From: a candidate division Kazan bacterium GW2011_GWA1_50_15
GTDB taxonomy: Bacteria; Patescibacteriota; Kazan-3B-28
Length of the DNA: 64,000 bases
NCBI GenBank assembly: GCA_001029795.1
Contig: CP011216.1
Location: 6,903 to 70,902 of the forward strand
Reading direction: 5' to 3'
The notes below the pieces were generated by a model that was not told the DNA's origin, did no database searches, and saw nothing but the letters and a program-made list of their open reading frames with translations. A program made the translations under genes and the position numbers. Of the stretch, positions 347 through 42,675 are shown one piece after another (the stretch's first letter is position 1; the number at the start of each line of letters is the position of its first letter).

Positions 347-601
347 ATGTATACCGTTTATGTTATTTATAACCAGCAGCACGACAAGATTTATATCGGT
401 CAAACAGAAAGTCTGGCGGAGAGGTTGGTTCAACACAAAAATAAACTCCTTGGAGATAAGAGTTACACGGCTCGGTTTGATGGGGGGTGGGCGGTTATTT
501 ATACTGAACAGGTGGCTAGTAGGGTATTAGCAATACAGCGAGAGCGCCAGTTGAAAAGTTACAGAGGACGGCAGTTTGTCAGAGAATTCATTCCCGTGTA
601 G
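347..601 (+). CDS. Small GIY-YIG (URI-domain) nuclease family protein, 84 aa
   Basis: Motifs VYVIYNQQHDKIYIGQTESLAERLVQH (GIY...YIG) plus R and E downstream. The listed ORF (269-601) reads through the tRNA fragment; the likely start is ATG at 347 (MYTVYVIY...). The stop TAG lies inside the first nucleotides of tRNA-Asn. Confidence 0.6.
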   Translation: MYTVYVIYNQQHDKIYIGQTESLAERLVQHKNKLLGDKSYTARFDGGWAVIYTEQVASRVLAIQRERQLKSYRGRQFVREFIPV

Positions 602-665
602 CTCAGCGGTAGAGCAATCGCCTGTTAAGCGATGGGTCGCTGGTTCGAATCCAGCCGCGGGAGCC
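591..665 (+). tRNA. tRNA-Asn (anticodon GTT)
   Basis: Cloverleaf: acceptor tcccgtg/cgcggga, D-arm gctc/gagc, anticodon stem atcgc/gcgat with loop ctGTTaa, T-arm ctggttcgaatccag, CCA encoded. Resembles E. coli tRNA-Asn (UCC... CUGUUAA loop). Confidence 0.8.
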
Positions 666-756
666 ACATAAAAACGAGTCAAATGACCGAGGTGTCTATC
701 TTGGTTGATTTGGCGTTTGTTTATTAAAGCCTGTAAATCTGGTAAAATAAGTCGTC

Positions 757-1785
757 ATGAGCACAACTGATTTAATTAAAAAAATTGAGGAATTGCGAGG
801 ATCAAAGGTGGTAACCTATATCACTAGCGATCGCCCAGGTCCAGTCAGCGCAAAGGTTGCTATGGATGTCGTTCCAATTATTAGTCGCCAACTACGGGCA
901 ATCGGTAAAGTTGAAAAGATTGACCTGTTTTTATATAGTTCGGGTGGAGATACTTTGGTCCCGTGGCGGTTAGTGTCCATGATAAGAGAATATTGTGATC
1001 ATTTTTCTGTACTGATTCCATATAAAGCTCATAGTGCAGCCACTATGATTGCTTTGGGTGCTGATGAAATCGTAATGACTGACTTATCAGAGCTTTCTCC
1101 AATTGATCCATCAACTGCTAATGTCTTTAATCCAGTAGATCCGCAAAATCCTCAAGGGCGAATCCCAATTTCAGTAGAGGATGTAATGGCTTATTTCGAT
1201 TTAGTGAAGAATAAGTTTGGCATCAAGAATGATCCAGATCTAGCGGCCATGTTTGCCAAATTTACCGAGGCCAATCCACAGATTCATCCGTTAGCATTAG
1301 GGAATATTAATCGCATTCACAATCTTATTCGGATGATTGCCCGACGGCTGTTAAAAAGCCACCGAAACCCAATGGAGGAAGAAAACATCACTAAAGTGGT
1401 TGACGATTTGACTGAAAAGCTCTATTCACATCAGTACTTCATTGGCAGGAAAGAGGCGAAGGATGATATCGGCATTAAATCAGTATCAGAGGCGGGCGAT
1501 GATTTGGCCAAGGCGATTACTGATCTGTATGAAAATTATGAAGTCGAGGTTGGACTGGGAATTTCTCAATGGAATCCAGAAGAAGAACTTGGCGTTGGTA
1601 ATCCTCAGGGCCAAAAGGACTACACTATTGCAGTGATAGAGAGCATTTCTAACAGTCGGAAGTTTCATATAAATATGGAGTTTAAACGACAGGTGACTCC
1701 AGCTGTTCAGCAAACTCCGCAAGGTCCTATACAAATTCAACAAGAGCAGATCAGTTTTCGAGTTATTAATCAAGGGTGGAAGTAA
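757..1785 (+). CDS. ClpP/crotonase-fold serine protease of the SDH (serine dehydrogenase proteinase, S49-like) family
   Basis: N-terminal 120 aa match the family pattern: VVTYITSDRPG, DLFLYSSGGD, SAATMIALGADEIVM, SELSPIDP (catalytic Ser in the GxSAAT-type motif). A long C-terminal extension is present. Confidence 0.6.
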   Translation: MSTTDLIKKIEELRGSKVVTYITSDRPGPVSAKVAMDVVPIISRQLRAIGKVEKIDLFLYSSGGDTLVPWRLVSMIREYCDHFSVLIPYKAHSAATMIALGADEIVMTDLSELSPIDPSTANVFNPVDPQNPQGRIPISVEDVMAYFDLVKNKFGIKNDPDLAAMFAKFTEANPQIHPLALGNINRIHNLIRMIARRLLKSHRNPMEEENITKVVDDLTEKLYSHQYFIGRKEAKDDIGIKSVSEAGDDLAKAITDLYENYEVEVGLGISQWNPEEELGVGNPQGQKDYTIAVIESISNSRKFHINMEFKRQVTPAVQQTPQGPIQIQQEQISFRVINQGWK

Positions 1786-1791
1786 GGTATT

Positions 1792-2379
1792 ATGATTGTT
1801 AATTTTTTGAAGTGGATTCAAGAGTTTCTTAACAGCAATATAGGATTGGTGACTTTTGTAGTCAGCTTTTTGGTCATTTATCTTTATGCGAAACAAAAAG
1901 CTGATAAAAAACGTGATGCCGCGAGTTTGATATTACAAGAAATTAGATTCGCCGAGCAGTGCATTAGGACTTATTTAGAGAAATATCAATACCAATTGTC
2001 TGATAGGCTATTGCCAACGAATAGTTGGAATGATAATGTTCATATTTTTATTAATAATCTCGATCAAACAGAATTAGACTTGATTAATCGGTTCTATTCC
2101 AAAACCGCTTACATAGATGTTTTGATTGGTAAAATCTCTGATTTTAAAAATGCTCCTATTCAAATGGGCCAAACCGTCACACCTTCTCAATCAGTGGTAA
2201 TTGGGTCTCCTCCAATGTCGGGTGGCCAGCCTGCACCGATGGTTGTACCTTTTGACCCCCTATTTAATACACAAAATACTCTTGCGAGTGTTTCTCAGAG
2301 TGTAGAACAAATCTACAATACTCCGGCAGGGGAAAAACTTAAGAGAATAGCTAAGAGAAAATGGTACCAGTTAGTTTGA
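1792..2379 (+). CDS. Hypothetical single-pass membrane protein (N-terminal TM helix; Gly/Pro-rich C-terminal segment)
   Basis: Starts 7 nt after the protease stop, forming an operon. Hydrophobic segment IGLVTFVVSFLVIYLY. No recognisable domain. Confidence 0.45.
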   Translation: MIVNFLKWIQEFLNSNIGLVTFVVSFLVIYLYAKQKADKKRDAASLILQEIRFAEQCIRTYLEKYQYQLSDRLLPTNSWNDNVHIFINNLDQTELDLINRFYSKTAYIDVLIGKISDFKNAPIQMGQTVTPSQSVVIGSPPMSGGQPAPMVVPFDPLFNTQNTLASVSQSVEQIYNTPAGEKLKRIAKRKWYQLV

Positions 2380-3654
2380 GTCGGTATTTTTGAGATGTCC
2401 ATTTTGTAAGATTAATCGGTTGGCGATATTTGATAATATTTCTCTTTTTTCTTCCGGCTTGCCTTCTCGGAGGATGTATTTGGCATAAAGCTTGAGGTCA
2501 ACTCTTGGCAATTTTGTTTCTTCTGATGTCAGCCCAAGTATTCCTTGGGTGAATTTATGGTAGCGATCAATTTCTTCTTGGAGTTTTTCTTTCATTCCGA
2601 TTTGATCCAGTTCCAACTTGTCGATTAGTCCAACAAATTGCTCAATTAGATCGGCTTCTCGGGTATATGGCTGGTTACATCCAATTCTTTTACTATCAGT
2701 GCAGTGGTAATAGATATGGCGTTTCATATCACCATTTTTAAGTCGCTTGAATTTCTCCTCGGCAGTTATTCCTGCCCCGCAAGCTCCGCAAACCATTAGT
2801 TTGGTAAAAGCGAAACACTTTTCGCCATGCCGACCATGGGCTGGTCTGGACATTCTAATCTGCACCTCATCGAACAACTCTTTGGTAATAAGCGGTTCGT
2901 GCTTGCCTTGATAGCTTTCTTTACCATAAGTATAGTCGCCATAGTAAAAGGGATTTTTTAGTATCAGGAAGATTGAACTTAAGACTACTTTCTTGCCACT
3001 TCTAGTCGTGAAGTTAGTTTCGGTATTCAGCCAATTGAAAATATCTCTGCCAGAATAGCCCTGCTTGGCCACTTTATTGAACATTTCTTTAATAAGTGGG
3101 GCCCTATCGGGATCAACTTTAATAGTATTGTCTTCCTTAATGTTTAAATATCCCAGTGGAGCTACGCCTGGTCGCCAACCCATCTCGCATTTGGTTCGCA
3201 TACCTCGTTTGACATTGACGCCTTTGTTGTCGTTCTCTAGTTTGGCTTGACTACATAGAATCATTAAGAGGAACTTCTCGTTAGGGGAGTTACGGAATAT
3301 CTGCCCATGGGTACGGATCTCTTGCAGCAGTCCTTGATCCATTAAATCCACTAAAGAACCAAGATCACCAGCATTTCTGCTTAAACGGTCAGGAGCCCAA
3401 GTTAGAATACCATTGAATTCTCCAGAGCGGATTCTCTGCAAAAGATCCATATAGGCAGGCCGTTGGCCAGAATCTTTGGCCGAATGACTTTCTTTGATGG
3501 TTTCTACTACTTCCACTCCATCTCTCTCGGCAGCAGCCATCATCTCCTTGATTTGGGAATCAATGGAAAGGGCTTGTCTTTCGTCCTGTTCGGATGACTT
3601 CCTGGCATATAGACAGTACTTCACGGGCTCCTCTAAAATCTCTTCTTGCGTCAT
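2371..3654 (-). CDS. Large serine recombinase (resolvase/invertase N-domain + recombinase domain + zinc ribbon)
   Basis: YCLYARKSSEQDE...SIDSQ catalytic-Ser region, a recombinase domain and CGACGAG...HIYYHC Zn-ribbon. The ORF extends to 3759; I prefer the ATG at 3654 (MTQEE...) preceded by aaggagaagaat. Confidence 0.75.
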   Translation of the reverse strand: MTQEEILEEPVKYCLYARKSSEQDERQALSIDSQIKEMMAAAERDGVEVVETIKESHSAKDSGQRPAYMDLLQRIRSGEFNGILTWAPDRLSRNAGDLGSLVDLMDQGLLQEIRTHGQIFRNSPNEKFLLMILCSQAKLENDNKGVNVKRGMRTKCEMGWRPGVAPLGYLNIKEDNTIKVDPDRAPLIKEMFNKVAKQGYSGRDIFNWLNTETNFTTRSGKKVVLSSIFLILKNPFYYGDYTYGKESYQGKHEPLITKELFDEVQIRMSRPAHGRHGEKCFAFTKLMVCGACGAGITAEEKFKRLKNGDMKRHIYYHCTDSKRIGCNQPYTREADLIEQFVGLIDKLELDQIGMKEKLQEEIDRYHKFTQGILGLTSEETKLPRVDLKLYAKYILREGKPEEKREILSNIANRLILQNGHLKNTDSN

Positions 3655-3801
3655 ATTCTTCTCCTTTTGTCCATAGGGGTATATTAAGGGTAAGGATGCC
3701 CGAAAGAGGCCTAAAGTCCAGCTATTTTCAGATTTGGAAAAAGCTTCGCAAAGGGCCATAATGGAGTTAAGGTTAAGGCATATTTTATCTACTCATAGGC
3801 C

Positions 3802-4566
3802 ATGAAGAAGCTCAAATATCCTACAGATTTTCTCAATAAAATAATCTGCGGTGATGCCGTAGAGGTTATGAAACAGATTCCCGATGGATCTGTAGATTTG
3901 ATCGTTACATCGCCGCCTTATAATTTAAAAAATTCAACTGGCAATGGAATGAAAGATGGTCGTGGTGGAAAATGGGCCAACGCTGCTTTGCAGAATGGTT
4001 ACACTCATCACGATGACTGTATGCCCCATGATGAGTATGTGAAGTGGCAAAGGGACTGTCTCGCTCAAATGTTAAGGATAATTCCGGAAGAAGGGGCAAT
4101 TTTTTATAACCATAAATGGAGAGTCCAAGATGGTTTGCTCCAAGACAGACAGGATATTGTTAGTGGTTTTCCGGTCAGGCAAATTATTATTTGGAAACGA
4201 AAGGGTGGGCTGAACTTTAACGCCGGGTATTTCCTACCCACTTACGAAGTAATTTACTTAATAGCCAAGTCTAAGTTTAAGTTAGCTGATAAAGCCAATG
4301 CCCAAGGTGATGTATGGGAATTTACACAAGAAATGGGGAATGACCACCCCGCTGCTTTCCCAGTCACTTTAATTAATCGTATAATTTCATCTACCAATGC
4401 CAAGATGATCCTAGATCCCTTTATGGGATCAGGTACCACGGCAATTTCAGCCATAAATTATAATCGTAATTATATTGGGATAGACCTATCGCCAGAATAC
4501 TGCAAGATGGCAGAGAGAAGGATCGAGCTTCGTAAAAAACAAGTAAAATTATTAATAGAAGTATGA
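3802..4566 (+). CDS. Beta-class amino-DNA methyltransferase (N4-cytosine or N6-adenine); motif IV SPPY precedes motif I DPFMGSGTT
   Basis: DLIVTSPPYNL early and DPFMGSGTTAISA late, the same order as M.PvuII/M.MvaI/M.BcnI-type enzymes. Confidence 0.8.
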   Translation: MKKLKYPTDFLNKIICGDAVEVMKQIPDGSVDLIVTSPPYNLKNSTGNGMKDGRGGKWANAALQNGYTHHDDCMPHDEYVKWQRDCLAQMLRIIPEEGAIFYNHKWRVQDGLLQDRQDIVSGFPVRQIIIWKRKGGLNFNAGYFLPTYEVIYLIAKSKFKLADKANAQGDVWEFTQEMGNDHPAAFPVTLINRIISSTNAKMILDPFMGSGTTAISAINYNRNYIGIDLSPEYCKMAERRIELRKKQVKLLIEV

Positions 4567-5357
4567 AAAAACCGATTATTTACACTAAACCGTTGTTGAT
4601 CAAGAAGCTCAAGGAAATTTCCGAATTGGGCTGGATTCCCAATGCAAGAAAAGGCAACGCTGGCGGGATTGGGAACACCCTGGAGGATTTATTGGGGATA
4701 ACAGAAAATAACTTGCCAATACCTAATGCTGCCGAGTGGGAATTAAAAACCCAACGATTAGGTACTAGCTCGTTGACAACACTGTTTCATACAGAGCCGT
4801 CACCCCGTGCGATTAAATTTGTGCCCCAAATTTTGTTACCCAAGTATGGTTGGGCCCATCAGGAAGCAGGGGAACAATATCCTAAGGGCGAAATGAGTTT
4901 TCGTCAGACCATTCATGGGCAATCGAGAAGTGACAGAGGTTTTAATGTGGTGATAGATCGTGCAGAGAAGAAAGTACTAATCTCATTTGATGCCAAGAGT
5001 GTGGATATACGCCACAAAAGATGGCTAGAGTCAGTTAAAAAGAGGGTAGGGCTTAAAGAGCTCGATCCGCAACCGTATTGGGGATTTGACGATCTTGAGC
5101 ATAAGGCAGGCACGAAATTACTTAATACTTTTTATGTACAAGCAGAGACAAAGATTGAACGCAAAAAAGAATACTATCATTACACAAAAATAATGATGCT
5201 TCAGAAGTTCAGTTTCGAGGGATTTCTCAAAGCGCTTGAAGAGGGGTATATTTTAGTGGATTTTGATGCTAGAACGGGCCACAACCACGGAACAAAGTTT
5301 AGGATGCGCCAAGATGCTTTACCAATGCTGTACGAAAAAGTTACTACTATTTTGTAG
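4563..5357 (+). CDS. Type II restriction endonuclease, MvaI/BcnI-like family (putative)
   Basis: Start overlaps the MTase stop (ATGA). N-terminal region GNTLEDLLGITENN...AEWELKTQRL...LTTLFHTEP parallels the BcnI/MvaI pattern GQILERQFG.QENN...GEFELKG...LTLFHKKP (from memory of BcnI). Confidence 0.55.
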   Translation: MKKPIIYTKPLLIKKLKEISELGWIPNARKGNAGGIGNTLEDLLGITENNLPIPNAAEWELKTQRLGTSSLTTLFHTEPSPRAIKFVPQILLPKYGWAHQEAGEQYPKGEMSFRQTIHGQSRSDRGFNVVIDRAEKKVLISFDAKSVDIRHKRWLESVKKRVGLKELDPQPYWGFDDLEHKAGTKLLNTFYVQAETKIERKKEYYHYTKIMMLQKFSFEGFLKALEEGYILVDFDARTGHNHGTKFRMRQDALPMLYEKVTTIL

Positions 5358-5362
5358 AGGAT

Positions 5363-5956
5363 ATGGCAGTAGATAGCATTGCAGATAAACTGGGCAAATA
5401 TCTTGCGAAGGATATCCCTATCAATAACGAGGCCGAAGTCTTATATTTTTTAATTGAGATCGGAAAAATTCTGGAACGAGATGAGAATATAAAATTTCCA
5501 CTCATAAAATTTTATAGGGATTGGGCTTGTCATCCTCGTAAGGACGGAATGATTCAGGAGATGTTAGATATTGTTCAGAAGATATATCAAGACGCTAAAA
5601 ACCACATGCAATCTCCACATGGATTAGGTAAACCTGTGGCTATACTAGATTTTACAAGTGGCGACCATCTTAAGAAGCAGATGAAGATGTTTTTGGCGGA
5701 ATATGGTTTATCGGACGATAATTTACTGTCCGATAAGAATTGGAAGTGGTTTGCCTCGATGCTATGTAATGTCTTAGCCGAACAGCCTCTATATCCTAAG
5801 TCAGAAGGAGTGGATCATGTTGAGTTTTTGCCAGTTGTTCAGGGTGCAGTTGGAGTAAAAGTGATATTCACTGGTGTTGAGAAAGGATGGGACGATAAGG
5901 ATTATGAGTATTATCAATTTCTGAACTATTTAGGCTCTCTGTCAGATGATTCATAA
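5363..5956 (+). CDS. Hypothetical protein, 197 aa; third gene of the RM operon
   Basis: Starts 6 nt after the REase gene on the same strand. No recognisable motifs. Confidence 0.4.
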   Translation: MAVDSIADKLGKYLAKDIPINNEAEVLYFLIEIGKILERDENIKFPLIKFYRDWACHPRKDGMIQEMLDIVQKIYQDAKNHMQSPHGLGKPVAILDFTSGDHLKKQMKMFLAEYGLSDDNLLSDKNWKWFASMLCNVLAEQPLYPKSEGVDHVEFLPVVQGAVGVKVIFTGVEKGWDDKDYEYYQFLNYLGSLSDDS

Positions 5957-5980
5957 ATGAAACATTTTGTGCCCTGGTTG

Positions 5981-6173
5981 CCACTGTCTCATTTGTCTCA
6001 TTTTCAGGTATGGGGGATAGCGCTTAGTACTGTCGCATTTGTCGCATTTTCTCCTATGGTTCTACAACTGACCGAGCCAGGTTGTCTCATTCCTAAAATC
6101 CCCAGATTATCTCCTTGGGAATCCAATCTGAACCGACCTGTTGAGCCATTTAGGACAGTTAGCTACTTCAGCC
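5981..6173. repeat. Repeat copy 1: degenerate tRNA-Asn 3'-end-like (T-arm/acceptor) segment preceded by tandem ctgtc(t/g)cattt motifs; att-remnant-like
   Basis: Shares ctgtcgcatttgtcgcattttctcctatgg...attatctcct.tgg...ctgaacc.a.ctgttgagcca with copies at 15187-15343 and 17450-17596. The 3' flank taggac.gttag.ta.ttcagc is shared with copy 3. Overlaps the 3' end of the recombinase gene 6107-7606. Confidence 0.6.
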
Positions 6174-7606
6174 AGTAGATTGAAAGGAGAACTAAGCTCG
6201 TAGAGCAGGTTTTTCCCTTGTAATCGGCAGTTCCGAAGTAAAAGACTCAAAAGTTGCCGTTTTTCAGGCACTTCCGAACTTTCAAATATCTCGCAAGCCC
6301 GTTTTGCCAGATTGAATACCATATTTGCCGTTAAATAAAACTCTTCGTCAGCCTGACTGTGGGTATTCATTTCAGCCAATAACTCTGACTGTCTACCTTT
6401 CCACTCTCTCAGCTTTTTGTCGTATTCTTCCTGTGTAATACTACCGTCGAGCTTGTCCACATACATTTTGGATATGCGATTTTCAAGGCGGTCATACTCA
6501 GCCTTAAGGCTATCCATACTATCACGATGGTAGTGAGATTCGCTTTGCCCGATGGCTTTGAGCTCCCTTGTTAGCCCGTCTATGGTGTCTTGGGGCAGTT
6601 GAATGGCTCTCAGGGCATCGTAGACAGGCTTCAAGAGCTCCTTCTCGGGTATCCAAGCCCTTTCGCAGAGCCCCTTATAGTTAGTGCAACTGTAGTAGAT
6701 ATACTTGCCCTTCTTAAGCTCTGGGGTGATTAAACATCCGCACTTGTCGCATCTTATGAGACCTCTAAAGATAAAGGGTTTAGCTTTGGATTTAAATGAC
6801 TTCTTGTTGTAGCCCGCCATTATGGTTTGGCACTTATCAAATAGCCACTTGGGAATCAGTGGCTCGTATTTGTGAGGATATTCCTTACCCTTAACGACCA
6901 TAACTCCGTGGTAAAAGGGATTTTTCAGATTCTTATGAACAAGACTGTTAGGGATTTGTTTCCCGTTTCTGGTCATCAACCCCGTCTTGTCTAACTCTTG
7001 TTTAATAGTTTTGACTGAATGCTGACCTGTCGCATAAAGCTCAAACATTCTTCTTATTGAATGGGCTCTTTCTGGGTCTGGGATGATTGTCTTTTTACCA
7101 TCAGGCAGGTCTTGGTTGATGTAGCCGATTGGAGCCATCCCTGCCCACTCCCTATTTAATATTTTTTGACTAAGGCTACGCTTCACATTGTCGCTTAGTT
7201 GCAAAACATAGCTTCGGGCAAACATTACTCCCATATCCCAACGAAGCAGGTCGGAGCTATTAGATTGGTCGTTGAGTATCAGGTTCTCTCGGATAAAGTG
7301 GATTTCTAATCTGCCATTCTTGCGGAACTCGTCCAATGTAACTGATTCCTTAAAACTGCGCTGTAGGCGGTCTATGGTTTCTACTACTAAAGTTACGGGT
7401 TCCTTGGAGGTGCTAATCTCGTTAATAACTAACTCAAACTTTTTGCGTTGGTCTTTAGTGGAAGACTCGTCAAATTGATATTCGCTCTGGACATCTAAAT
7501 TTCTGTCTTGGCACCATTGTCTTGAGCGGGCAAGTTGGGCGGGGATAGACTGTCCGTCCTGTATTTGTTCTTCTGTTGAAACTCGGGCTAAGATGACGGC
7601 TTTCAT
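6107..7606 (-). CDS. Large serine recombinase (second copy, distinct sequence)
   Basis: MKAVILARVSTEEQ...SIPAQ N-terminal resolvase motif, recombinase domain and Cys-rich zinc ribbon CDKCGC...YYSCTNY. Confidence 0.8.
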   Translation of the reverse strand: MKAVILARVSTEEQIQDGQSIPAQLARSRQWCQDRNLDVQSEYQFDESSTKDQRKKFELVINEISTSKEPVTLVVETIDRLQRSFKESVTLDEFRKNGRLEIHFIRENLILNDQSNSSDLLRWDMGVMFARSYVLQLSDNVKRSLSQKILNREWAGMAPIGYINQDLPDGKKTIIPDPERAHSIRRMFELYATGQHSVKTIKQELDKTGLMTRNGKQIPNSLVHKNLKNPFYHGVMVVKGKEYPHKYEPLIPKWLFDKCQTIMAGYNKKSFKSKAKPFIFRGLIRCDKCGCLITPELKKGKYIYYSCTNYKGLCERAWIPEKELLKPVYDALRAIQLPQDTIDGLTRELKAIGQSESHYHRDSMDSLKAEYDRLENRISKMYVDKLDGSITQEEYDKKLREWKGRQSELLAEMNTHSQADEEFYLTANMVFNLAKRACEIFESSEVPEKRQLLSLLLRNCRLQGKNLLYELSSPFNLLAEVANCPKWLNRSVQIGFPRR

Positions 7607-10600
7607 AGATTATTTTCTTTTGCAATTTGTAGGTATAAGCGGTTGACCTCTTTGTCCACATCACGCATTTTAGAATCATTCTTATAGCCAAGATGAGCTT
7701 CCTTCGATAGGTTAACAAGTGCTTTGTGCGCACTATTGTTAGGGTCATACTTGGGGATATATACAGGGGGTCGAATCTTAAAGGTCCGACTGTCTGAGGA
7801 TAATAACACAAATTTTTGTGTGATAGGGGCATTTAGGATGGCACAAATGAAGTGGGCTTCGTCGATTGTGATAAAGCCTCCCTTGGCATCTTCGCAGATA
7901 GATACGGCGTGGTTCTGAAAGAGCGGATGTCTTACCCCGCCCCATTCAGTATCCACGTCGGACACGACCACAGCCTGCCATTTTGTGTTGTCTCGAAAAC
8001 AGACATAATTTCTTGCAAAGCTATAAGCCCCCACCCTTGCTAAGGCGTAAAACTCCTGCTCTTTTTTGCCAATAATCTTTGCATTGTATTCTGTTTGATT
8101 CTCAAACATCTTTTTGTAGTTTACGAAATAGGTGGCGAGTAAGGGACTTTTTTCTTTTAATATTTTGAGATTCAAAGGGACACGAGTGCTAACCTCCTTA
8201 TCGTATGGAAATGGAACAACATAATTGTCGTCTGTGTTGAGATGATATCTTTCAATATCGACACCCTTGATTAGGGGGTGTAGATATTCTTTCTCTACTA
8301 AAATAGTTTGCTGACCTATCTTATACTTTGACTTTTGATTTTGATAATTGTTAAGATATACCTTCCCAGTTAGGGCTTTTATCTCTAAATCGGCTTTGAA
8401 CAGAAGGAGCTCCTGTGGATAGAATTCGATGCCCTCTCTACCTAAATAATAAGAGCTACCCGAGATTGAATTGAAATCTTGTATGTCAGATTTATTATTA
8501 GCATAAGTAAAAGCCGTGTTTTCATCATTGCACTGACCAAGATACCCCTCTTTTTTAATAAAGAATTCTTTTACATTCTCAAACTTAGAGTAATGATTGA
8601 TTTCCTCAATCGGCTTTTTAGTGTTTTTCTTGTAAATCTCTAAGTTAATGCCTTTCTTGTAGTCAGTTTTGTTGCTTGATATAAAGTAGGTTAAAAACTT
8701 ATGCTGGACAGGTTTGAAAGGATGACCCGCTCCTGTCCAATCAACAATTTTTTGGAAGTAAAATCTTGTGCCATCTGAAATATAAAAATTCCTAAAACCC
8801 TCATAAGTCTGTTGGAATAGGAGATTCTGTGGCATCAGGAAAGAAAGCACCCCGTCTTTTTTTAGCCAGTTATCAACAGCGACATTCGCAATAAGAGCAC
8901 AGATATTGAGATTAATACCCCCAGTAATACCATCGCCTGAGAATAGGTGTCTTTCGATGCAGAGAGATTTCACCCTTTCTCGATAACCCTCAGGTAGGCT
9001 TTTCCAGTCAATCCAGGGCGGATTGCCGACTATCAGGTCAAATTTGCCGAGATTGGCAGTGGTAAGAAAATTCGTAACAATACGAGCCCAGATACCATTC
9101 CACTCGTTTTTCTCGAGTTCAACGAATCTGCTGGACAAGTCCTGGATATTTGAAATTATATCGTTGTTAATGTCTGCCTTGTTTACTAAAGCAACTATCT
9201 TATTAAAAACCGCCTTTTCATCTAATGCTTTGATATCTTGTTCGATTGCAGTCATTGTCCTTGAAAATAGACCAGAATCAGCCACTGCACTTTTGGGTAA
9301 GGTAACGTCGAGGTATCCTTTAAGGGTTTTGATTTTGTAGTTTAAGCAATCAACACCTGAGACCTTGGTTTCTTCTGGAACATATGAAGAATCGCCCAGG
9401 TAAACTGGGATTTCTATGTCTCCATCGTCAGTAATCAAATGAGCGATATTGATAAAGTAGTTTATTCTACAAGTCAGCACTGCTAACGGGTTCAGGTCAA
9501 TTGCCTTAACACGATTCAATATGCTCTTTAAGCGATTCTCTTTGCTGTTATCAGATGCTTCTTCGTTGATAATTTTCTCAATCAGAACAGTTATAAATGT
9601 TCCAGACCCAGCACAAGGGTCTAATCCTCTCCAATTTGGCTTATTATCCAACATTTCGATTGTCTCTGTAACAAGGTGGTCGGCAAGCCAAGCTGGTGTA
9701 TAGAATTCACCTAAGCTATGCCTAACTTTTAATGGGATTATTTGCTCGTATAGTTCTTTAAATAAATCTTGAGCACGGGTCTCTTCCTGAGATAAAATCT
9801 TGTCTTCATATTTTGTAAGAGTATGAAAGGTTTCCTTAACTATTTCATAAATGTCGTCGCTCCATTGACCAGGTGATGCATACCAAGAGAAAAAGTCTCC
9901 CTCAAGGAGATTAGTGATACCCAGAGACCTAAAGACAGCTCCATCTTCAAGTGCCTCCATTTGCTTCTGAATGACGGAACTGTTGCTGACAGCCAGCTCG
10001 TTGAATTGGATGATATTTTTCTTGAACTTAATTTTACTTGTAACCTTATAGGCAATTATTTTGATAATTATTGCATAAGCCGTTTGTAGAGAATATAGGG
10101 CTAAATATTCCTCTGCATTGGTTTTGATTTTGATACCCAAACTCCTCCCCAGTGCATGTCTTCTTTCTTCAATAGCCAATTGTTTAGACTTGTCGTTATG
10201 TGCAAGTCTAAACAATTCTCGCCACTCTTCAAAGAGCATCAGAGTTTTGCCAGTAGCTTTATTGTTAAGGGTGTCAAAAAGAATTTTTGCCAACCTTTTT
10301 GATAGAGAGCAATCAAGAGGTTCACAAAAATCTTTGACAAGGTTTTTTGAGTTAAGGGCTACTAAGTCAAGGATTAGTATCGACCTAATTATTCTGTCCA
10401 AATATCTATCCGAGATATCTCCCCAAGCTTCCTCATAAATTTTACCGTGTTCACATCTTATAAACTTTAAAATAATCCCGTCTGTAACAAGACCAAGATA
10501 GTCGTTCTGATTTTTTGCATATAAACCAGAAAGATAGTCAGTTAATTGTTGGTCCGCACTATCCTTATGTGCTTTTGTTTTTAGTTTACTCGGGTGCTTG

Positions 10601-10863
10601 AATTCAATAATGAATCCACCATACTTGCTGTCTATCCTTCCTTTGGTTATGTGCCGTTCAGTATTGACCAACTTTTCCTTCTGGGGATAGTATTTAATTC
10701 CTAAGTGGTCAGACAAAAAGGCAAATAAGTTGATTTCAAAAACACTTACAACAGTAGCTTCATTTTCTGCCGTCTCTGAGCCTCGGCGTATAGACAAAGC
10801 CAAGTCGACAAGCTTTTCTCTGTATTCAGTAGTGTCTAAAAAACTAAGGTTTTTGCTTTCCAT
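7603..10863 (-). CDS. Type IIG/IIL-like fused restriction-modification enzyme (N-terminal PD-(D/E)xK nuclease + gamma-class N6-adenine MTase + C-terminal target-recognition region), 1086 aa
   Basis: IDSKYGGFIIEFK (D...ExK) near the N-terminus. MTase motif I LDPCAGSGTF and motif IV IVGNPPWIDW. Size and layout resemble MmeI/BpuSI-type enzymes. Start overlaps the recombinase stop (ATGA). Confidence 0.6.
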   Translation of the reverse strand: MESKNLSFLDTTEYREKLVDLALSIRRGSETAENEATVVSVFEINLFAFLSDHLGIKYYPQKEKLVNTERHITKGRIDSKYGGFIIEFKHPSKLKTKAHKDSADQQLTDYLSGLYAKNQNDYLGLVTDGIILKFIRCEHGKIYEEAWGDISDRYLDRIIRSILILDLVALNSKNLVKDFCEPLDCSLSKRLAKILFDTLNNKATGKTLMLFEEWRELFRLAHNDKSKQLAIEERRHALGRSLGIKIKTNAEEYLALYSLQTAYAIIIKIIAYKVTSKIKFKKNIIQFNELAVSNSSVIQKQMEALEDGAVFRSLGITNLLEGDFFSWYASPGQWSDDIYEIVKETFHTLTKYEDKILSQEETRAQDLFKELYEQIIPLKVRHSLGEFYTPAWLADHLVTETIEMLDNKPNWRGLDPCAGSGTFITVLIEKIINEEASDNSKENRLKSILNRVKAIDLNPLAVLTCRINYFINIAHLITDDGDIEIPVYLGDSSYVPEETKVSGVDCLNYKIKTLKGYLDVTLPKSAVADSGLFSRTMTAIEQDIKALDEKAVFNKIVALVNKADINNDIISNIQDLSSRFVELEKNEWNGIWARIVTNFLTTANLGKFDLIVGNPPWIDWKSLPEGYRERVKSLCIERHLFSGDGITGGINLNICALIANVAVDNWLKKDGVLSFLMPQNLLFQQTYEGFRNFYISDGTRFYFQKIVDWTGAGHPFKPVQHKFLTYFISSNKTDYKKGINLEIYKKNTKKPIEEINHYSKFENVKEFFIKKEGYLGQCNDENTAFTYANNKSDIQDFNSISGSSYYLGREGIEFYPQELLLFKADLEIKALTGKVYLNNYQNQKSKYKIGQQTILVEKEYLHPLIKGVDIERYHLNTDDNYVVPFPYDKEVSTRVPLNLKILKEKSPLLATYFVNYKKMFENQTEYNAKIIGKKEQEFYALARVGAYSFARNYVCFRDNTKWQAVVVSDVDTEWGGVRHPLFQNHAVSICEDAKGGFITIDEAHFICAILNAPITQKFVLLSSDSRTFKIRPPVYIPKYDPNNSAHKALVNLSKEAHLGYKNDSKMRDVDKEVNRLYLQIAKENNL

Positions 10864-11041
10864 AAGTGTTCTGATGCAAGAATTGGCTAAAAGTTTTTTT
10901 GTCGATTCTATATTCTTTGCCGAATTTATAGACCTTTAACTTGCCAGCTTTTATATAGCGGTAAATCGTCATTATGTTGACCTGCAGTTTCTCGGCTAAC
11001 TCCTGGGCTGTATAGAAATCTTTTTCCATAGTAATCCTCAT
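10844..11041 (-). CDS. Excisionase-family helix-turn-helix DNA-binding protein (AlpA/Xis-like)
   Basis: YTAQELAEKLQVNIMTIYRYIKAGKLKVYKFGKEYRI matches the excisionase-family HTH pattern. 3' end overlaps the start of the Type IIG gene. Confidence 0.6.
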   Translation of the reverse strand: MRITMEKDFYTAQELAEKLQVNIMTIYRYIKAGKLKVYKFGKEYRIDKKTFSQFLHQNTYGKQKP

Positions 11042-11068
11042 TACGTTAGTATTATACTTTACAATGCT

Positions 11069-12190
11069 TTACATCTCAAATCTGGGTTTGTAAGGTTGAA
11101 ATTCATCAATCTGAGCAATGACTTGCTTAACCCAGCCGTCATATTGGGCGGGGGATTTGTTGAGGTTTTTTAGCTCTTTTACGATTCGAGTCCAAGTGCG
11201 AGGGTTGGCTCTGTTGTTTAGCATTTGTCGTAATTCTCTTATGCCTGTTGCGTCTTTAGCCAAGAGATATAAGCCCGTAAGAAAGATGGCTTGTTTGTGT
11301 TTGATTTTAGGGTGGTTAATCAGGATGGTATTAAGAATTTGCTTGGGCTTAATGTCGCTGGTAAAGATAAATAAGTTGTGGTTGGCTATGAGCTCTTGCC
11401 AGTAGTAGCTCACTACCTTTTGCGAGGTGCCGCTACAGAAAACATCTTTAAATGTGGGATTCTTGGGGTATCCGAGTTTCTGGAGTAAAGAATTGAGTTT
11501 ACGCCTGTCAGCAATGCGTATTTCCACTCTAAGAATTTCAAGTTTTTGTTCTTGGGCTTGTTCAAATAAAGAGCGTTGAATATAGTTTTGGTCTTTGTCT
11601 ATGGAACGGTTTTTGGTCTTCTGGATGTCTTGGATTTTGTCATAAAAGACAAGGGAATTCGAGGTGGCATAGTATTGCAGGGATTGCCCATCGTTCTGAA
11701 ACCCGTGCCGTGTAATATCCAGTTTTTTAGATATGTTTACCTTCATTAGCTCTTTGATTACGAAGCTTGGGGTGTAGCCATCCTCAAGTTCAATATTTTT
11801 GGAGTAGTGGACTGCGGATACCTGTGCAGTGGCTAACAGGGGTTTTAGTATGTTAACCCCAATATCCCTAAGACTGTTGGTTAGTCTTTCAAGCACGGCA
11901 TCAAAGTCGCTATCGGTCAGTTCTTCCAGATTGTTGCCGTATAGCAGTTTAGGGGCTGAAAACTGGATAGTTAGCTCCTGTGCTATCTGACCATCTTTTG
12001 TCCATCTTTTCGTAAGGGTTAGGCAGGGTCTGTAGTGATGCAACCGTCTTTCTTCGGCAGTCGGGTTGTTTGTGATTTTGCTTATGGGTTTTTCATACTT
12101 AGTGAAATCATCAGCATTTTTGCTGAATTTATCGGGTTTTGAGATGTAATATTGCCCCTTAGGAATTTTTAGGACGATTGTGTCTATCAT
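11069..12190 (-). CDS. Hypothetical protein, 373 aa; possibly a replication/mobilisation initiator of the integrated element
   Basis: No firm motif. Position within a recombinase-bearing element and basic/Tyr-containing segments suggest a Rep-like role; this is an unverified guess. Confidence 0.3.
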   Translation of the reverse strand: MIDTIVLKIPKGQYYISKPDKFSKNADDFTKYEKPISKITNNPTAEERRLHHYRPCLTLTKRWTKDGQIAQELTIQFSAPKLLYGNNLEELTDSDFDAVLERLTNSLRDIGVNILKPLLATAQVSAVHYSKNIELEDGYTPSFVIKELMKVNISKKLDITRHGFQNDGQSLQYYATSNSLVFYDKIQDIQKTKNRSIDKDQNYIQRSLFEQAQEQKLEILRVEIRIADRRKLNSLLQKLGYPKNPTFKDVFCSGTSQKVVSYYWQELIANHNLFIFTSDIKPKQILNTILINHPKIKHKQAIFLTGLYLLAKDATGIRELRQMLNNRANPRTWTRIVKELKNLNKSPAQYDGWVKQVIAQIDEFQPYKPRFEM

Positions 12191-12399
12191 TGCGTTTATA
12201 TTTTTGGGGATTATTACGCTGGTCTACTTTAAAGAGAATTGCCATAAATTGGACGAGTTTACCCCAGTCCTCTTGAGAGAGATTTTTCAGGGTCGGATTA
12301 CCGAGGCTGGATTGTTGGTTGTTTGCAGACATAAAAATAACCTCTGTTTTGAGGTTACAAAATGCTGTGTTTGCAGAACTCTGCGAGGTAGTCTGCAGA

Positions 12400-13551
12400 C
12401 TATTCGAGGTATTTTTTGTTGAGCTGGAGCGTAGTTTTTTTCATAATTACAAAATCCCTAATCCTGGTTTGCTTGGCTATCTCCTCGTTGAGGTCATAGG
12501 TGGCATTGTAGAGCTTCTTCCAATGCTTGCGAGGGTTATACTCAATGCTCTTGCCAAAGAGTTTTTCCCAAAGTTCATCGACATCCCAGACTTTTGTGGG
12601 GGCTTTGAATACTGCTTTGAGTAGATAGTGGGGGTTGCTGTCGAGAGTTTTAGAGATGATAGCTCTGTGAACCTGAAATACCAACTCGCTTGTTTTGGGG
12701 TTGAAGGCGGTTGGGCATTTTGTCAGCACTTTGGTTGGCTGGTTTTCTTCTTGGAGAGTTTTGTTTTTTAGCGTAACCCTGACCTTATAAGTCATTGTTT
12801 CCTTCTCGGGAGGGACATCCCAGTCCGTTACCCAGATTGCATTAACATCAAAATATCCCTGCTTTTCCAAGGCAATCAGGGTATGTATGAACAGACCCTG
12901 TCTCTCTGCCAAGATATAACTTGGGAATGGATTGGGGGTATTTTGACCAGGGTTTTGCACCACAAAGGTGTTGCCAAGGTCTCTGCTCTCCATTTTGAGC
13001 TCCCGTAACATCCGCTCCTTTTGTCTATCGAATTTGTAGTAATTATCTTTTTCTACAGCCAGGTTATCAGATATAAATGCTTCAATGTAAGATGTCAGAA
13101 AACTATCCAGCCTATCCTGGGTTTTCTTGCTGAGTATAGTTGGGAACTCAAACCACTCTGCCAACTTGTATTTTTCGGATATCATTCCTATCGCTATAAA
13201 GTCTTGATAGGTAAACTCATTTTTCTTCAGGGCTTCTATCGAGTTTGCTATTCCTTCGCTAACACCATCTTCAATGTGCTGGCTCCACTCATCATCATTG
13301 GTGTAGGTGTAATATCCTTTAGAGTTGAAAGAGAGACCATCTATCTCGATACCCATATTTTTCATATGGAGGCTTAGTAATGCCAAGCACACGCCCAAGG
13401 TCGAGAAGTCGGGAGCAGCGAGGTCTTCAAATCCTATGGGGTTTTTGGTGGTCAACCTGTGCGCATTAGCATACTTCCAGAGTCCATATAGGATTTTCTC
13501 TGGCAGATAGGGGCACTGCTTCAATTTTTGGGGGTTGGACGCTTGCTTCAT
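12400..13551 (-). CDS. Hypothetical protein, 383 aa
   Basis: Long ORF in the AT-rich island with no recognisable domain. Confidence 0.35.
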   Translation of the reverse strand: MKQASNPQKLKQCPYLPEKILYGLWKYANAHRLTTKNPIGFEDLAAPDFSTLGVCLALLSLHMKNMGIEIDGLSFNSKGYYTYTNDDEWSQHIEDGVSEGIANSIEALKKNEFTYQDFIAIGMISEKYKLAEWFEFPTILSKKTQDRLDSFLTSYIEAFISDNLAVEKDNYYKFDRQKERMLRELKMESRDLGNTFVVQNPGQNTPNPFPSYILAERQGLFIHTLIALEKQGYFDVNAIWVTDWDVPPEKETMTYKVRVTLKNKTLQEENQPTKVLTKCPTAFNPKTSELVFQVHRAIISKTLDSNPHYLLKAVFKAPTKVWDVDELWEKLFGKSIEYNPRKHWKKLYNATYDLNEEIAKQTRIRDFVIMKKTTLQLNKKYLE

Positions 13552-13652
13552 ACTCTCTTTACTTTAGTTTACAACAGTATGATAGTCGACCTATGATGTA
13601 GGGGATGTATAAGCGAAGAAGACAGCCAGCACTAAAACTGAGGCAATCACTT

Positions 13653-13728
13653 GCCTCTGTAGCTCAATGGACAGAGCAACTGTCTTCTGAACAGTAGGTT
13701 GAGGGTTCAAATCCCTCCAGAGACACCA
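13653..13728 (+). tRNA. tRNA-Arg (anticodon TCT), embedded at the right end of the island
   Basis: D-arm gctc/gagc, anticodon stem actgt/acagt with loop ctTCTga, T-arm gagggttcaaatccctc, CCA encoded. One C-A mismatch at acceptor pair 2:71. Confidence 0.6.
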
Positions 13729-13787
13729 AGGGCAATGACGGCACTTTCTGATTGTGCTTTTTCTGCTTGTCCTGCTACGATGTAGGC

Positions 13788-14294
13788 ATGACGATGAAGA
13801 CTACCAAGCTACCCCCGAAGGCACTCAAAGCAGTTGATGTGGGGCGGTATTTTATACATCTCTCCAATGAGGCAGGGAAGCCAATAACCAACAAAAAGCT
13901 ACAAAAGCTGGTCTATTACTCTCAGGCTTGGTCATTGGTGCTTAACGATAAAAAGCTCTTTGGTGAGCCTATTGAAGCGTGGGTTCACGGACCTGCTGTG
14001 CGAAGCCTGTATGTTCAATACAAGCCATTTGGCTTTGGTCCAATACGGGAAACGATAAGCGTTCAGGATGTCAAAAAAATATCTGGCAAGGTCAAGAAAC
14101 TCCTTGATGACATCTGGCAGGTTTATGGCAAGTTAGATGCCAGTTATCTTGAAATGCTGACCCATTCTGAACAGCCTTGGCTGACTGCTCGGGATGGACT
14201 ACAGGGGCACGAGAACTCTGAGAAGGAAATATCTTTAGACAGTATGAAGAGCTTCTATACCGACAAGCTCCAAAAGTCTAAAGGTAGAAAATGA
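13788..14294 (+). CDS. Panacea-domain (DUF4065, SocA-like) antitoxin-type protein
   Basis: KLQKLVYYSQAWSLVLNDKKLFGEPIEAWVHGPAVRSLY matches the DUF4065/Panacea core. The ORF is listed from 13752; internal Met preferred. Confidence 0.55.
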   Translation: MTMKTTKLPPKALKAVDVGRYFIHLSNEAGKPITNKKLQKLVYYSQAWSLVLNDKKLFGEPIEAWVHGPAVRSLYVQYKPFGFGPIRETISVQDVKKISGKVKKLLDDIWQVYGKLDASYLEMLTHSEQPWLTARDGLQGHENSEKEISLDSMKSFYTDKLQKSKGRK

Positions 14295-14737
14295 CAGATA
14301 TTCCCAAAGGTGTAGTTCAGCCCTCTGAAGAGGGGGGTATAGAGATAACCCAATCGGTTGCTGAACTGCCCGAGGAAAGCGAAGCTCCAGAGGCGAGCCC
14401 TTATTTGATTTCTTTTGCGAAGTATAACGAGAGAGAGTGCCAGATTGCTGATTTGCAGGGGAATATGGGTAAAAAGGCGTTGTTAATACTAAAGGCAATA
14501 GGCACTAAGATAAAGTGCATTGCAGACTTTGCTACTCATAATGTTGAAAGGCGTCCCATAAGGCGGGAGGGGGACTATTTGAAACTGTATAGGGGTCTCA
14601 GTGATGATATTGACCTTCACGAAGCCAACCTACAAAGCACGGGTAGGATTTTCTATTTTGATGTGGAGCCAGACAGGTTGCTCTATGTGGTCGCAATTAC
14701 CAATCGCCATTTTGAGACGGGCAAGGTTAGGCGGTAG
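14291..14737 (+). CDS. Putative RelE/ParE-fold toxin partner, 148 aa
   Basis: 4-nt overlap with the upstream Panacea gene. C-terminal RIFYFDVEPDRLLYVVAITNRHFE resembles the RelE/ParE C-terminal motif (R.YY....L.v..I.H). Confidence 0.4.
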   Translation: MTDIPKGVVQPSEEGGIEITQSVAELPEESEAPEASPYLISFAKYNERECQIADLQGNMGKKALLILKAIGTKIKCIADFATHNVERRPIRREGDYLKLYRGLSDDIDLHEANLQSTGRIFYFDVEPDRLLYVVAITNRHFETGKVRR

Positions 14738-14857
14738 CCAGCCCCCGTTCCAATAACGGCAGGATGCCCGAATACCCCAATTCCTGTTTGATAACCTTCC
14801 AGTCAACTGTTCTAAACTTGTCCAATAGGGGGAGCCAACCAGTGCGCGAGCAAAGCG

Positions 14858-14890
14858 ACCCAGATGCGTTAAATCAGTCCAGTAGCCCAA
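14858..14890. repeat. Partial copy of the tRNA-3'-end-like repeat (gacccagatgcgtt ... cagtagccc)
   Basis: Matches the central block of copies 2 and 3 and the leader of copy 2. Confidence 0.4.
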
Positions 14891-14992
14891 AACCCCTTCC
14901 CGGAGGGCTGTTTTGTGCTACTATCTAAGTGTTCACCCACAACTTAAAAATCCGAAGGATTTCTCTATTTTGGAAGAGATTCGTCATGGGTA

Positions 14993-15190
14993 AAGGCGGG
15001 CAGATGCTCGAATAACTGACAAAGAAATAGCTAAGTTCCAGCAGATTTACGAGAAGGAGTTTGGAGTCAAAATCAGCAAGAAGGACGCCCTGGAACAGGG
15101 CACTAAGCTGTTGGTTTTAATGAAAGCCATTTGCCAGCCCATTCCATCACGAGGCCACGAAGATAGTCCAAAGTCCAGCCCAAGACAGTA
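14993..15190 (+). pseudogene. Gene remnant without start codon (…KEIAKFQQIYEKEFGVKISKKDALEQGTKLLVLMKAI…) in a degenerate, ORF-poor zone
   Basis: Open frame with no ATG. Lies in 14740-15190, which carries repeat fragments. Confidence 0.25.
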
Positions 15191-15343
15191 GCCCTTGCCA
15201 CTGTCTCATTTGTCTCATTTCCTCCTAAGGTTCTATAACTGACCCAGATGCGTTCGGGCCCATCCAAAACCTCCGAATTATCTCCTTTGGTGGGGGTTCT
15301 GAACCCAGCTGTTGAGCCAAACAAAAACGAGTCAAATGACCGA
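15187..15343. repeat. Repeat copy 2: tRNA-Asn 3'-end-like segment followed by a 21-nt flank identical to the flank of the intact tRNA-Asn
   Basis: ggttctgaacccagctgttgagcca mimics ctggttcgaatccagccgcgggagcca. aaaaacgagtcaaatgaccga (15323-15343) is identical to 669-689 immediately 3' of tRNA-Asn. Confidence 0.65.
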
Positions 15344-15392
15344 CCCCCTAAGGGACGGGCATTTGGCGGTTCTCAGAAAAAGTCGCTTCCAG

Positions 15393-15421
15393 TTGACTTA
15401 AGAGGTAATTTATGATATAAT
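15393..15421 (+). promoter_or_regulatory. Consensus sigma70-type promoter (TTGACT - 17 nt - TATAAT)
   Basis: ttgact at 15393-15398 and tataat at 15416-15421 with 17-nt spacer, 28 nt upstream of the 15449 ORF. Confidence 0.55.
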
Positions 15422-15448
15422 AAACAAGCTTTTAAAAACCAAAATAAA

Positions 15449-15778
15449 ATGGCCGAGAAATCACTTGAGTCCCCTCTGGAAGAAGAAGTCATCAAACGCT
15501 TCAAGCTGTTTAGGGATTTGCGTGATAATGAGGAAGACGAGAGAATATTGAATCTGGTGGAAGAGGGGTTGCGGGAAGAGGCATTGCGAGCTGTCGCGGA
15601 GATGATACCCGCGGGCCAGGCTGAGTCAGTCAAAAAGAAACTAGCTCAGGCAACTACAGCGGATGAAGCCATGGGAGTACTGGCTAGTTTTGCGCAGGAC
15701 GATTTGACTCGTTGGCAATTGAGAAATCGACTGATGGCTTATCTGGACAACCTATTAGTGAAAAGTAAAGCAATGTAA
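15449..15778 (+). CDS. Small acidic hypothetical protein, 109 aa
   Basis: ORF preceded by the consensus promoter. Stop overlaps the start of the next gene (TAATG). Confidence 0.45.
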   Translation: MAEKSLESPLEEEVIKRFKLFRDLRDNEEDERILNLVEEGLREEALRAVAEMIPAGQAESVKKKLAQATTADEAMGVLASFAQDDLTRWQLRNRLMAYLDNLLVKSKAM

Positions 15779-20190: not shown

Positions 20191-20200
20191 ACAGATCAGA

Positions 20201-40792: not shown

Positions 40793-42675
<1,883 letters not shown>

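Follow-up and report, generated by a model that had tools for sequence, protein, structure and literature searches.

A probable tandem array of two alternating kinds of serine-recombinase element at the 3' end of a tRNA-Asn gene in a Kazan bacterium

We analyzed a single window of 64,000 nucleotides (contig CP011216.1, positions 6,903 to 70,902) at the beginning of the genome of candidate division Kazan bacterium GW2011_GWA1_50_15, an organism from the candidate phyla radiation (CPR; Patescibacteria); the coordinates of this window are used throughout. In the region from 667 to ~17,600, five integrative-element units of two alternating kinds are probably arrayed in tandem at the 3' end of the tRNA-Asn gene (GAGCCA). 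We call them LSR1-type and LSR2-type after the large serine recombinases (LSR) of the two intact units. A previous sequence-only reading had described here an AT-rich island reaching from tRNA-Asn to a tRNA-Arg gene (13,650), composed of two modules that meet at a single junction. This interpretation is partly supported: it was right in essence and wrong in extent. Tandem accretion of separate elements at a tRNA hotspot, each with restriction-modification (R-M) cargo, is upheld by relatives that carry either kind alone, but the region is longer than proposed, it comprises five units, three of them decayed remnants, and there are five junctions, each breaking at GAGCCA. The target, the junctions, the half-sites and the units (related loci in other contigs are given L numbers) are as follows.

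592 to 666, plus strand: tRNA-Asn(gtt), the integration target (ARAGORN, Rfam, junction alignment)
666: junction of the tRNA with Y'
14837: junction of P2 with Y''
15319: junction of X with Y
Half-site T: the tRNA-Asn 3' end
Half-site Y: an arm resembling CGAGTCAAATGACCGAG
Half-site X: a module of 125–170 nt with tandem TGTCNCATT 9-mers and a pseudo-tRNA-like end
Half-site P2: GTTCTAAACTTGTCCAATAGGGGGAGCCA
667 to 6148: unit E1, intact LSR1-type element (5,482 bp, G+C 0.407)
6149 to 14837: unit E2, intact LSR2-type element (8,689 bp, G+C 0.415)
14838 to 15319: unit E5, LSR1-type remnant (Y'' match to L103 and X repeat)
15320 to 17572: unit E3, with LSR1-type ends (repeats)
17573 to 17612, minus strand: unit E4, LSR2-type stub (alignment, translated by eye; Z-like pattern match at 17575)

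The shared breakpoint GAGCCA corresponds to the last six bases of tRNA-Asn (661–666). All five junctions in the window hold this hexamer, and pairwise similarity between them begins or stops exactly there. The identity between sites is only ~6 bp, not a long tRNA 3' segment. A repeat search revealed that the tRNA-Asn 3' end together with the next 24 nt (661–690) recurs at 15314–15343 (28/30 identical), and that the X repeats at 15193–15319 and 17448–17572 are 91% identical over 126 nt. The att-like repeat that had been placed at 5981–6173 is thereby borne out, as the segment 5976–6148 recurs at both of these positions. The fifth junction site (14809–14862) was recognized by its likeness to a junction in a Kazan relative, and six kinds of half-site can be named across the junctions. 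Regular-expression searches of the 64 kb returned three Y matches, each 9 nt past GAGCCA, and Z-like matches at 6151 and 17575, with no further occurrences of either pattern. The sequence shows that every integration has kept the tRNA end, and according to the junctions the site has been used no fewer than five times. The base composition agrees with the AT-richness noted earlier: G+C is 0.36–0.44 over 1,000–13,500 and 0.48–0.54 farther right in the window profile, and the low values of E1 and E2 compare with 0.51 for the core.

We also considered the possibility that Y is the native chromosomal flank of tRNA-Asn. It was ruled out by LSR1-type loci, many of which have a Y-like CGAG..GACCGAG motif directly after the tRNA end; the tRNAs trailed by Y-like arms include tRNA-Trp, Gln, Met and Ser, whereas the other tRNAs of the window lack such an arm. 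Because the arm follows the tRNA whatever its identity, Y is part of the element rather than of the chromosome.

LSR2 (AKM84475.1) has 2008 relatives in the database at E ≤ 1e-20. In GTDB species representatives there are 389, from many CPR lineages as well as environmental Chlamydiae; one database relative is labelled "cassette chromosome recombinase B". We examined 80 LSR2-type loci for overlap with tRNA genes, and in at least 59 of them the 3' end of the recombinase gene overlaps or abuts the antisense 3' end of a tRNA or transfer-messenger RNA (tmRNA). In 49 loci the gene ends in an antisense tRNA 3' end (Asn 19, His 11, Gln 7, Thr 6, Leu 2, and Glu, Trp, Tyr and Arg 1 each), three further loci have an overlap of more than 80 nt, and six chlamydial loci abut the tmRNA gene. 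In the closest relative (L018, 11459–11787, minus strand) the tRNA whose 3' half contains the end of the recombinase gene is interrupted by a group I intron (Rfam RF00028, 81 bits), which is why ARAGORN missed it; group I introns in tRNAs are known from Patescibacteria (PMC13011429). Of the rest, most carry an antisense T-arm motif where the gene ends; at least nine tRNA identities occur among the targets of the family, and a conserved Trp codon near the C-terminus of LSR2 is the antisense of CCA. The chlamydial loci that abut tmRNA (ssrA; L037, L039, L042, L048, L065 and L086) are without the CPR-type backbone of Rep and HTH genes described below.

LSR2-type loci share a gene order: a ~380-aa protein, a ~50-aa open reading frame (ORF), a ~370-aa Rep, a ~60-aa helix-turn-helix (HTH) protein of the HTH_17 family, a gap of 0–6.7 kb and the recombinase. 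In 29 loci the gap between the HTH gene and the recombinase holds 60 ORFs, all co-oriented and almost exclusively Type III, IIG, I and II R-M genes. We read the LSR2-type unit as an integrative element of plasmid-like character, in which the backbone order is fixed and a single variable R-M slot precedes the recombinase. Its recombination at the discriminator-CCA end would leave the tRNA intact and swap the last 13–36 recombinase codons. In the window, the last 14 codons of LSR2 (6107–6148) are encoded in the X' module of E1, hence the gene spans the attachment site, a feature that the sequence-only reading had missed. According to the computed tails, the ORF is open in all three configurations: it has 522 aa in the circle and 499 aa, with differing tails, beside the tRNA or beside another element. 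The locus L017 carries an E2-type element alone, which overlaps a tRNA-Asn by 42 nt; this tRNA and the one in the window have identical 3' halves. The element adjoins RpoD-DnaG, matching the left-flank neighborhood of the window. Since the E2-type element is alone at tRNA-Asn there, E1 represents a separate insertion.

LSR1 is a member of another very large CPR family, with more than 580 relatives (26–30% identity to LSR2-family proteins in tblastn); the recombinases of the array are ~50–80% identical to CPR proteins. In LSR1-type loci the recombinase gene lies in the middle of the element with variable regions on both sides: R-M-rich cargo upstream and divergent, and 0.1–4.9 kb of variable genes downstream, followed by a minus-strand tRNA. 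A minus-strand tRNA within 5 kb was found downstream in 25 of the 51 loci with sufficient sequence versus upstream in 2 of 53, and the first tRNA was never on the opposite strand. E1-type elements occur alone at other tRNAs in L098 and L103. The tandem 9-mer of the X module is present in nine LSR1-type loci, always at the cargo-side end; the single case near an LSR2-type gene abuts a neighboring cassette. Tandem 9-mer pairs (TGTCNCATT twice) are found in the window at 5985–6049, 15202–15219 and 17454–17471 and also in L098, L114, L115, L130, L149, L155, L162 and L176, sometimes as two pairs 46–57 nt apart; they may be protein-binding sites.

The intact LSR1-type element E1 contains the following features.

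667 to 690, plus strand: Y' arm CATAAAAACGAGTCAAATGACCGA, which forms the left end of E1; P' arm in elements of the LSR1 type (28/30 to 15314–15343)
757 to 1785, plus strand: ClpP-like SDH-type serine protease, 342 aa (Pfam SDH_protease 2.6e-15; phrog_11747 8.8e-40)
1792 to 2379, plus strand: 195-aa protein, partner of the protease (ORF list)
2371 to 3759, minus strand: LSR1, large serine recombinase (start ATG at 3654, 427 aa; start ATG at 3759, 462 aa)
3802 to 5956, plus strand: Type II R-M operon (PADLOC MTase_II 4.1e-123, REase_II 6.3e-82)
3802 to 4566: N4/N6 (beta-class) methyltransferase of this operon (PF01555, 6.2e-38)
4563 to 5357: MvaI/BcnI-family restriction endonuclease of this operon (PF15515, 7.8e-69, whole profile)
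5363 to 5956: 197-aa ORF without family assignment
5976 to 6148, plus strand: X' module, right end of E1

As the sequence-only reading had proposed, the island encodes two large serine recombinases, each with the Pfam domains Resolvase, Recombinase and Zn_ribbon_recom (in LSR1: PF00239, 1.2e-19; PF07508, 1.4e-17; PF13408, 2.6e-7). In the family alignment of LSR1 the motif R18-K19-S20 and four Cys residues are invariant. The operon of a methyltransferase, an endonuclease and a 197-aa protein is likewise present; the first two genes overlap by 4 nt and, judged by their profile matches, their products can be classified as a Type II R-M system of the MvaI/BcnI kind. The X' module consists of two tandem 9-mer pairs (TGTCTCATT twice at 5985 and TGTCGCATT twice at 6031), terminates in the pseudo-tRNA-like ...CTGTTGAGCCA, and over 83 nt shares 93% identity with the cargo-side end of L098, an LSR1-type element from a Kazan relative. 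On the tRNA side, the cargo of E1 is the pair of the protease, which has no PADLOC match, and the 195-aa protein, whose translation contains a hydrophobic N-terminal stretch and which has no family match in Pfam, PADLOC, PHROG and TIGR scans. The genes at that position in L099 and L103 are not homologous, which rules out the protease/membrane-protein pair as a conserved backbone of LSR1-type elements. Elsewhere the slot holds a PD-(D/E)XK-like 355-aa protein with a 211–238-aa protein (L099, L103) or an AAA_15/21 ATPase (L098). This position looks like a second slot for defense-like cargo.

The intact LSR2-type element E2 comprises the following features.

6107 to 7606, minus strand: LSR2, large serine recombinase, 499 aa (Resolvase 1.8e-15, Recombinase PF07508, Zn_ribbon PF13408)
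7603 to 10863, minus strand: Type IIG R-M enzyme, 1086 aa, in the variable cargo slot (PADLOC REase_MTase_IIG 2.8e-161, residues 12–1077; Pfam Eco57I, N6_Mtase)
10844 to 11041, minus strand: excisionase-family HTH protein, 65 aa (HTH_17 7.6e-12; TIGR01764 "excise" 48.3 bits against a cut-off of 28.8; PHROG excisionase families)
11069 to 12190, minus strand: Rep, rolling-circle initiator-like protein, 373 aa (VE98_C0001G0019)
12159 to 12332, minus strand: 57-aa backbone ORF, no family match
12400 to 13551, minus strand: 383-aa backbone ORF, no family match
13653 to 13728, plus strand: tRNA-Arg(tct), inside E2 (ARAGORN)
13752 to 14294, plus strand: SocA/Panacea-domain antitoxin (SocA_Panacea 7.5e-19)
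14291 to 14737, plus strand: 148-aa partner ORF (4-nt overlap with the antitoxin)
14777 to 14837, plus strand: P2 arm, right end of E2 (61 nt, 83.6% identical to L055 49–109; 26/30 to L099)

All the genes that had been assigned to the second module, namely the 1086-aa Type IIG fusion (matched over its full length), the Xis-family HTH gene, the Rep-like gene and the 383-aa hypothetical gene, are found here, but the module also includes the SocA/Panacea pair and tRNA-Arg and ends only at 14837. The motif R8-V9-S10 and four Cys residues are invariant in the LSR2 family alignment. The profile matches of the 1086-aa protein place it among putative Type IIG enzymes (Eco57I/MmeI-like, single-chain). 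The HTH gene was found in 35 related loci, always upstream of the cargo and the recombinase, and its product is a candidate recombination directionality factor or regulator. A fold search with a Rep structure predicted with database homologues identified the Rep_trans fold, while a profile search against PDB sequences gave no match; Y183-D184-K185, E218, E223 and D3 are invariant in the family. The homologues of the 57-aa and 383-aa ORFs keep their order in relatives. The 148-aa protein has no recognizable toxin domain in Pfam, PHROG and TIGR scans; by gene arrangement, the two genes at the far end of E2 resemble a toxin-antitoxin pair.

In L055, a region of 4.7 kb that corresponds to 7558–12292 of the window (Rep, HTH and Type IIG genes) is 93% identical at the nucleotide level, yet the recombinase is only 73% identical, which indicates that modules of E2-type elements are exchanged. 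The locus L014 shares Rep at 85% nucleotide identity and carries a Dcm and BsuBI/PstI cargo at a tRNA-Gln target.

The three units beyond E2 are decayed. E5 (482 bp) is left with a Y'' arm (14838–14870; 19/21 to the Y arm of L103), an X module (15193–15319) and no intact gene. E3 has Y at 15320–15343 and X'' at 17448–17572, a G+C of 0.49 and only two ORFs of 109 and 537 aa, neither with a family match in Pfam, PHROG and TIGR scans. E4 is a 25-codon stub of LSR2-type. Because the proximal units are intact and low in G+C whereas the distal ones are decayed, the elements nearest the tRNA would be the youngest. Most simply, units were inserted at the tRNA end one after another, each newcomer coming to lie beside the tRNA. 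Short BLAST of L014, L016 and L017 found no direct repeat of the tRNA 3' end on their far side, as expected for serine recombinases, and the boundaries were therefore taken from the stops of cross-genome homology.

Several points weigh against this picture of the array. Characterized serine integrases need both attB half-sites, but in this array every successive target would have had an arm of another element as its right half. The sequence does not reveal in which order the events took place, and E3, with its core-like G+C and without a recombinase, may not be an independent element. The similarities of P2 to L099 (E = 0.068) and of Y'' to L103 (E = 0.27) are convincing through position only, and the roles of the HTH protein and of Rep follow from family and fold only. 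Thirteen same-species contigs from several samples all carry the same five junctions in the same order, with no excised circle, empty site or alternative junction among them, and two junction patterns had no match in viral contigs.

The same five units could have been assembled differently, by insertion of newcomers into the pseudo-tRNA arms (X or P2) of resident elements, by joining of attL-type with attR-type sites through the recombinase and the excisionase, or by homologous recombination between X modules; we regard this as possible and clearly less probable than insertion at the tRNA end. X and P2 both finish in a tRNA-like ...GAGCCA, which might pass for the target arm. The two element types are in the opposite order in L099/L018, from a Kazan relative, where the LSR1-type one is found on the far side of the LSR2-type one. 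The X modules are 80–95% alike over 45–126 nt and have a 14-nt block in common with Y'': the 14-mer GACCCAGATGCGTT occurs at 14857–14870 (Y'' tail), at 15241–15254 and 17494–17507 (X modules) and at 5904–5917 in L098 from a Kazan relative, which hints at possible recombination among element ends. The decay of the distal units next to intact proximal ones fits insertion at the tRNA end best, although all routes give the same final map and sequence cannot separate them.

A tentative alternative of about the same weight is that the array is a fixed, immobile defense island, whose recombinases are relics or have been recruited for another role. All the same-species assemblies examined, which come from different studies and samples, do show one and the same arrangement, and three of the five units are clearly dead. 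On the other hand, neither recombinase gene is truncated, Rep and the HTH gene are also full length, and so are the two arms of each intact element; the motifs with the catalytic Ser agree with those of the respective families, and the 93%-identical cargo and backbone accompanied by a different recombinase in L055 argue for recent exchange. If E1 and E2 are mobile integrative elements, E2 may be excised with the HTH protein as directionality factor, and the resulting circle would be replicated by Rep. Host protection is the role suggested for both R-M systems and for the Panacea pair, which would also stabilize the element by post-segregational killing. The predicted circle junction of E1, X' with Y', would read GACCTGTTGAGCCACATAAAAACGAGTC, and loss of E2 would create a junction of X' with Y'' predicted as GACCTGTTGAGCCAACCAGTGCGCGAG. 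Variant LSR2 C-termini, sought as other integration states in the 90% protein cluster, yielded only fragments with the same tail. The empty tRNA-Asn site was sought in related species via the flanking 537-aa protein, for which there was no relative in the contig collection.

The right end of E2 decides the original proposal of a two-module island from tRNA-Asn to a chromosomal tRNA-Arg, which now seems very improbable. Both tRNAs exist where they were placed, the G+C is lowest up to ~13,500, and the last large minus-strand gene of the second module ends at 13551, before tRNA-Arg. However, the P2 arm, whose dyad was read off the sequence, has its homologues in L055 and L099, where they form the far ends of E2-type elements. 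Both matches end at GAGCCA and the flanks beyond differ, being unrelated in L055 and consisting of a Y arm and an LSR1-type element in L099; since homology stops at GAGCCA in both, E2 ends at 14837. It follows that tRNA-Arg and the SocA/Panacea pair are cargo, and tRNA-Arg is not a border. A tRNA-Arg(tct) with 86% identity lies at the equivalent place in L055, inside the P2 arm of an element that has a different recombinase. SocA homologues are found at the equivalent end of E2-type elements in L016, L017, L033 and L076, including elements with other tRNA targets, and three more GAGCCA junctions are situated to the right of tRNA-Arg. We also tested 15319, where one of the X repeats ends, as the end of an E2 that includes an X module; this was rejected because of the junction between P2 and Y'' at 14837 and the specificity of the X 9-mer for LSR1-type ends.

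A degraded prophage or phage satellite can practically be dismissed: the protease is weakly similar to ClpP-type head maturation proteases (PHROG, 1e-8) and Rep weakly matches a filamentous-phage replication family (Pfam), but in PHROG the protease scores best against a family without assigned function, the island is without capsid, terminase, tail and lysis genes, the LSR2 relatives among 2.9 million viral contigs are only distant (≤37% identity), and the cargo is R-M in nearly all relatives.

Other features of the window include a copy of the 5' half of tRNA-Asn at 292–342 (within 269–666), with exact matches of 17 and 18 nt to 588–604 and 608–625. This copy is split by the palindrome CTCCGCCAGCTGGCGGAG and ends in the anticodon loop. 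Just downstream lies a GIY-YIG nuclease ORF (347–601), which overlaps the first 10 nt of the intact tRNA-Asn. The arrangement looks like a homing-type insertion that duplicated the tRNA 5' half; GIY-YIG homologues are found near tRNAs in L032, L064, L130 and L150. Farther right there are three tRNA-Met genes within 2 kb (20116–22035) and a lone 16S rRNA gene (40792–42424, Rfam), which is ~100 nt longer than the Rfam model and has no adjacent 23S gene. Past the 16S gene (to 44319) a 206-aa ORF is followed by divergent tRNA-Ala and tRNA-Ile genes.

Mageeney et al. (2020) described serine integrases as "not known for targeting tRNA genes" and mapped 14 of 297 serine-integrase elements to t(m)RNA genes, with proof still needed (PMC7192596), and tRNA is not mentioned in the recombinase discovery survey of Durrant et al. 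(2022). Our literature searches turned up no description of these CPR elements. As a speculation that goes well beyond the map itself and that we hold with little confidence, the LSR1-type and LSR2-type elements might be two undescribed families that have spread over the CPR bacteria, the LSR2 family also into Chlamydiae. Their integrases, with crossover at the discriminator-CCA end, might be the first natural serine integrases to form a coherent class with t(m)RNA genes as targets, and the elements might act as dedicated R-M shuttles, with the LSR2 tail reporting the integration state and biasing the direction of recombination. As tRNA-targeting serine integrases are barely documented, the frequency of t(m)RNA ends among the LSR2-type loci makes the evolution of target choice testable. 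The elements also show how ultra-small CPR bacteria, with few known mobile elements, acquire and swap R-M systems. From the predicted attP/attB pairs of ~50 bp, tools for the genetics of CPR bacteria and Chlamydiae might be developed, or additional orthogonal integrases. A practical lesson is that the borders of such islands are not readable from tRNA positions alone, as the elements carry their own tRNAs.

The closest functional analogue of the array is found in staphylococcal cassette chromosome mec (SCCmec) and in ACME (arginine catabolic mobile element), which are inserted at the 3' end of rlmH/orfX by the recombinases CcrAB or CcrC. In both cases large serine recombinases are employed, the 3' end of a housekeeping gene is kept functional and its site is re-used, and cassettes, some of them without a recombinase of their own, are stacked in tandem with short repeated junctions between them. 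Tandem ACME-SCCmec arrays are on record in a published abstract. Unlike SCCmec, the array has a t(m)RNA end as its target instead of rlmH, with one recombinase per element; LSR2-type elements have their attP inside the recombinase ORF and additionally encode a Rep of the rolling-circle kind together with an excisionase-family protein; R-M systems take the place of resistance genes as cargo; and the hosts are CPR bacteria and Chlamydiae. The array is therefore an analogue and not a member of SCC, a class defined by ccr and rlmH.

Islands in tRNA genes are classically the domain of tyrosine integrases. The array resembles such islands (Islander/TIGER class) in the use of the 3' part of a t(m)RNA gene that is kept, in the position of the integrase at the edge and in the formation of tandem arrays, and differs from them in the serine-family recombinase and in the site identity of ~6 bp. 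Actinomycete integrative and conjugative elements of the pSAM2 type possess a rep-xis-int operon with a rolling-circle Rep, a tyrosine integrase and Tra/Spd genes, and also target tRNA genes. E2-type elements are likewise small integrative plasmids at a tRNA gene with the order Rep, excisionase-like gene and recombinase, but they have a serine recombinase, an R-M slot between xis and int, and no recognizable transfer genes. In the archaeal SSV1-type integrase, a tyrosine enzyme with a tRNA target, attP is inside int and integration splits the gene into two halves. The LSR2-type elements share the tRNA target, the attachment site within the recombinase ORF and the alteration of the gene by integration; unlike in SSV1, only the C-terminal tail is exchanged and the ORF is open in every state. 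Finally, R-M gene complexes linked to integrase genes were described as mobile units by Furuta, Abe and Kobayashi (2010; PMC2853133). The elements reported here are similar in that they combine R-M genes with an integrase and would be self-stabilizing, but differ in that they constitute a dedicated vehicle, with a fixed backbone and one exchangeable slot, distributed across hundreds of CPR species.

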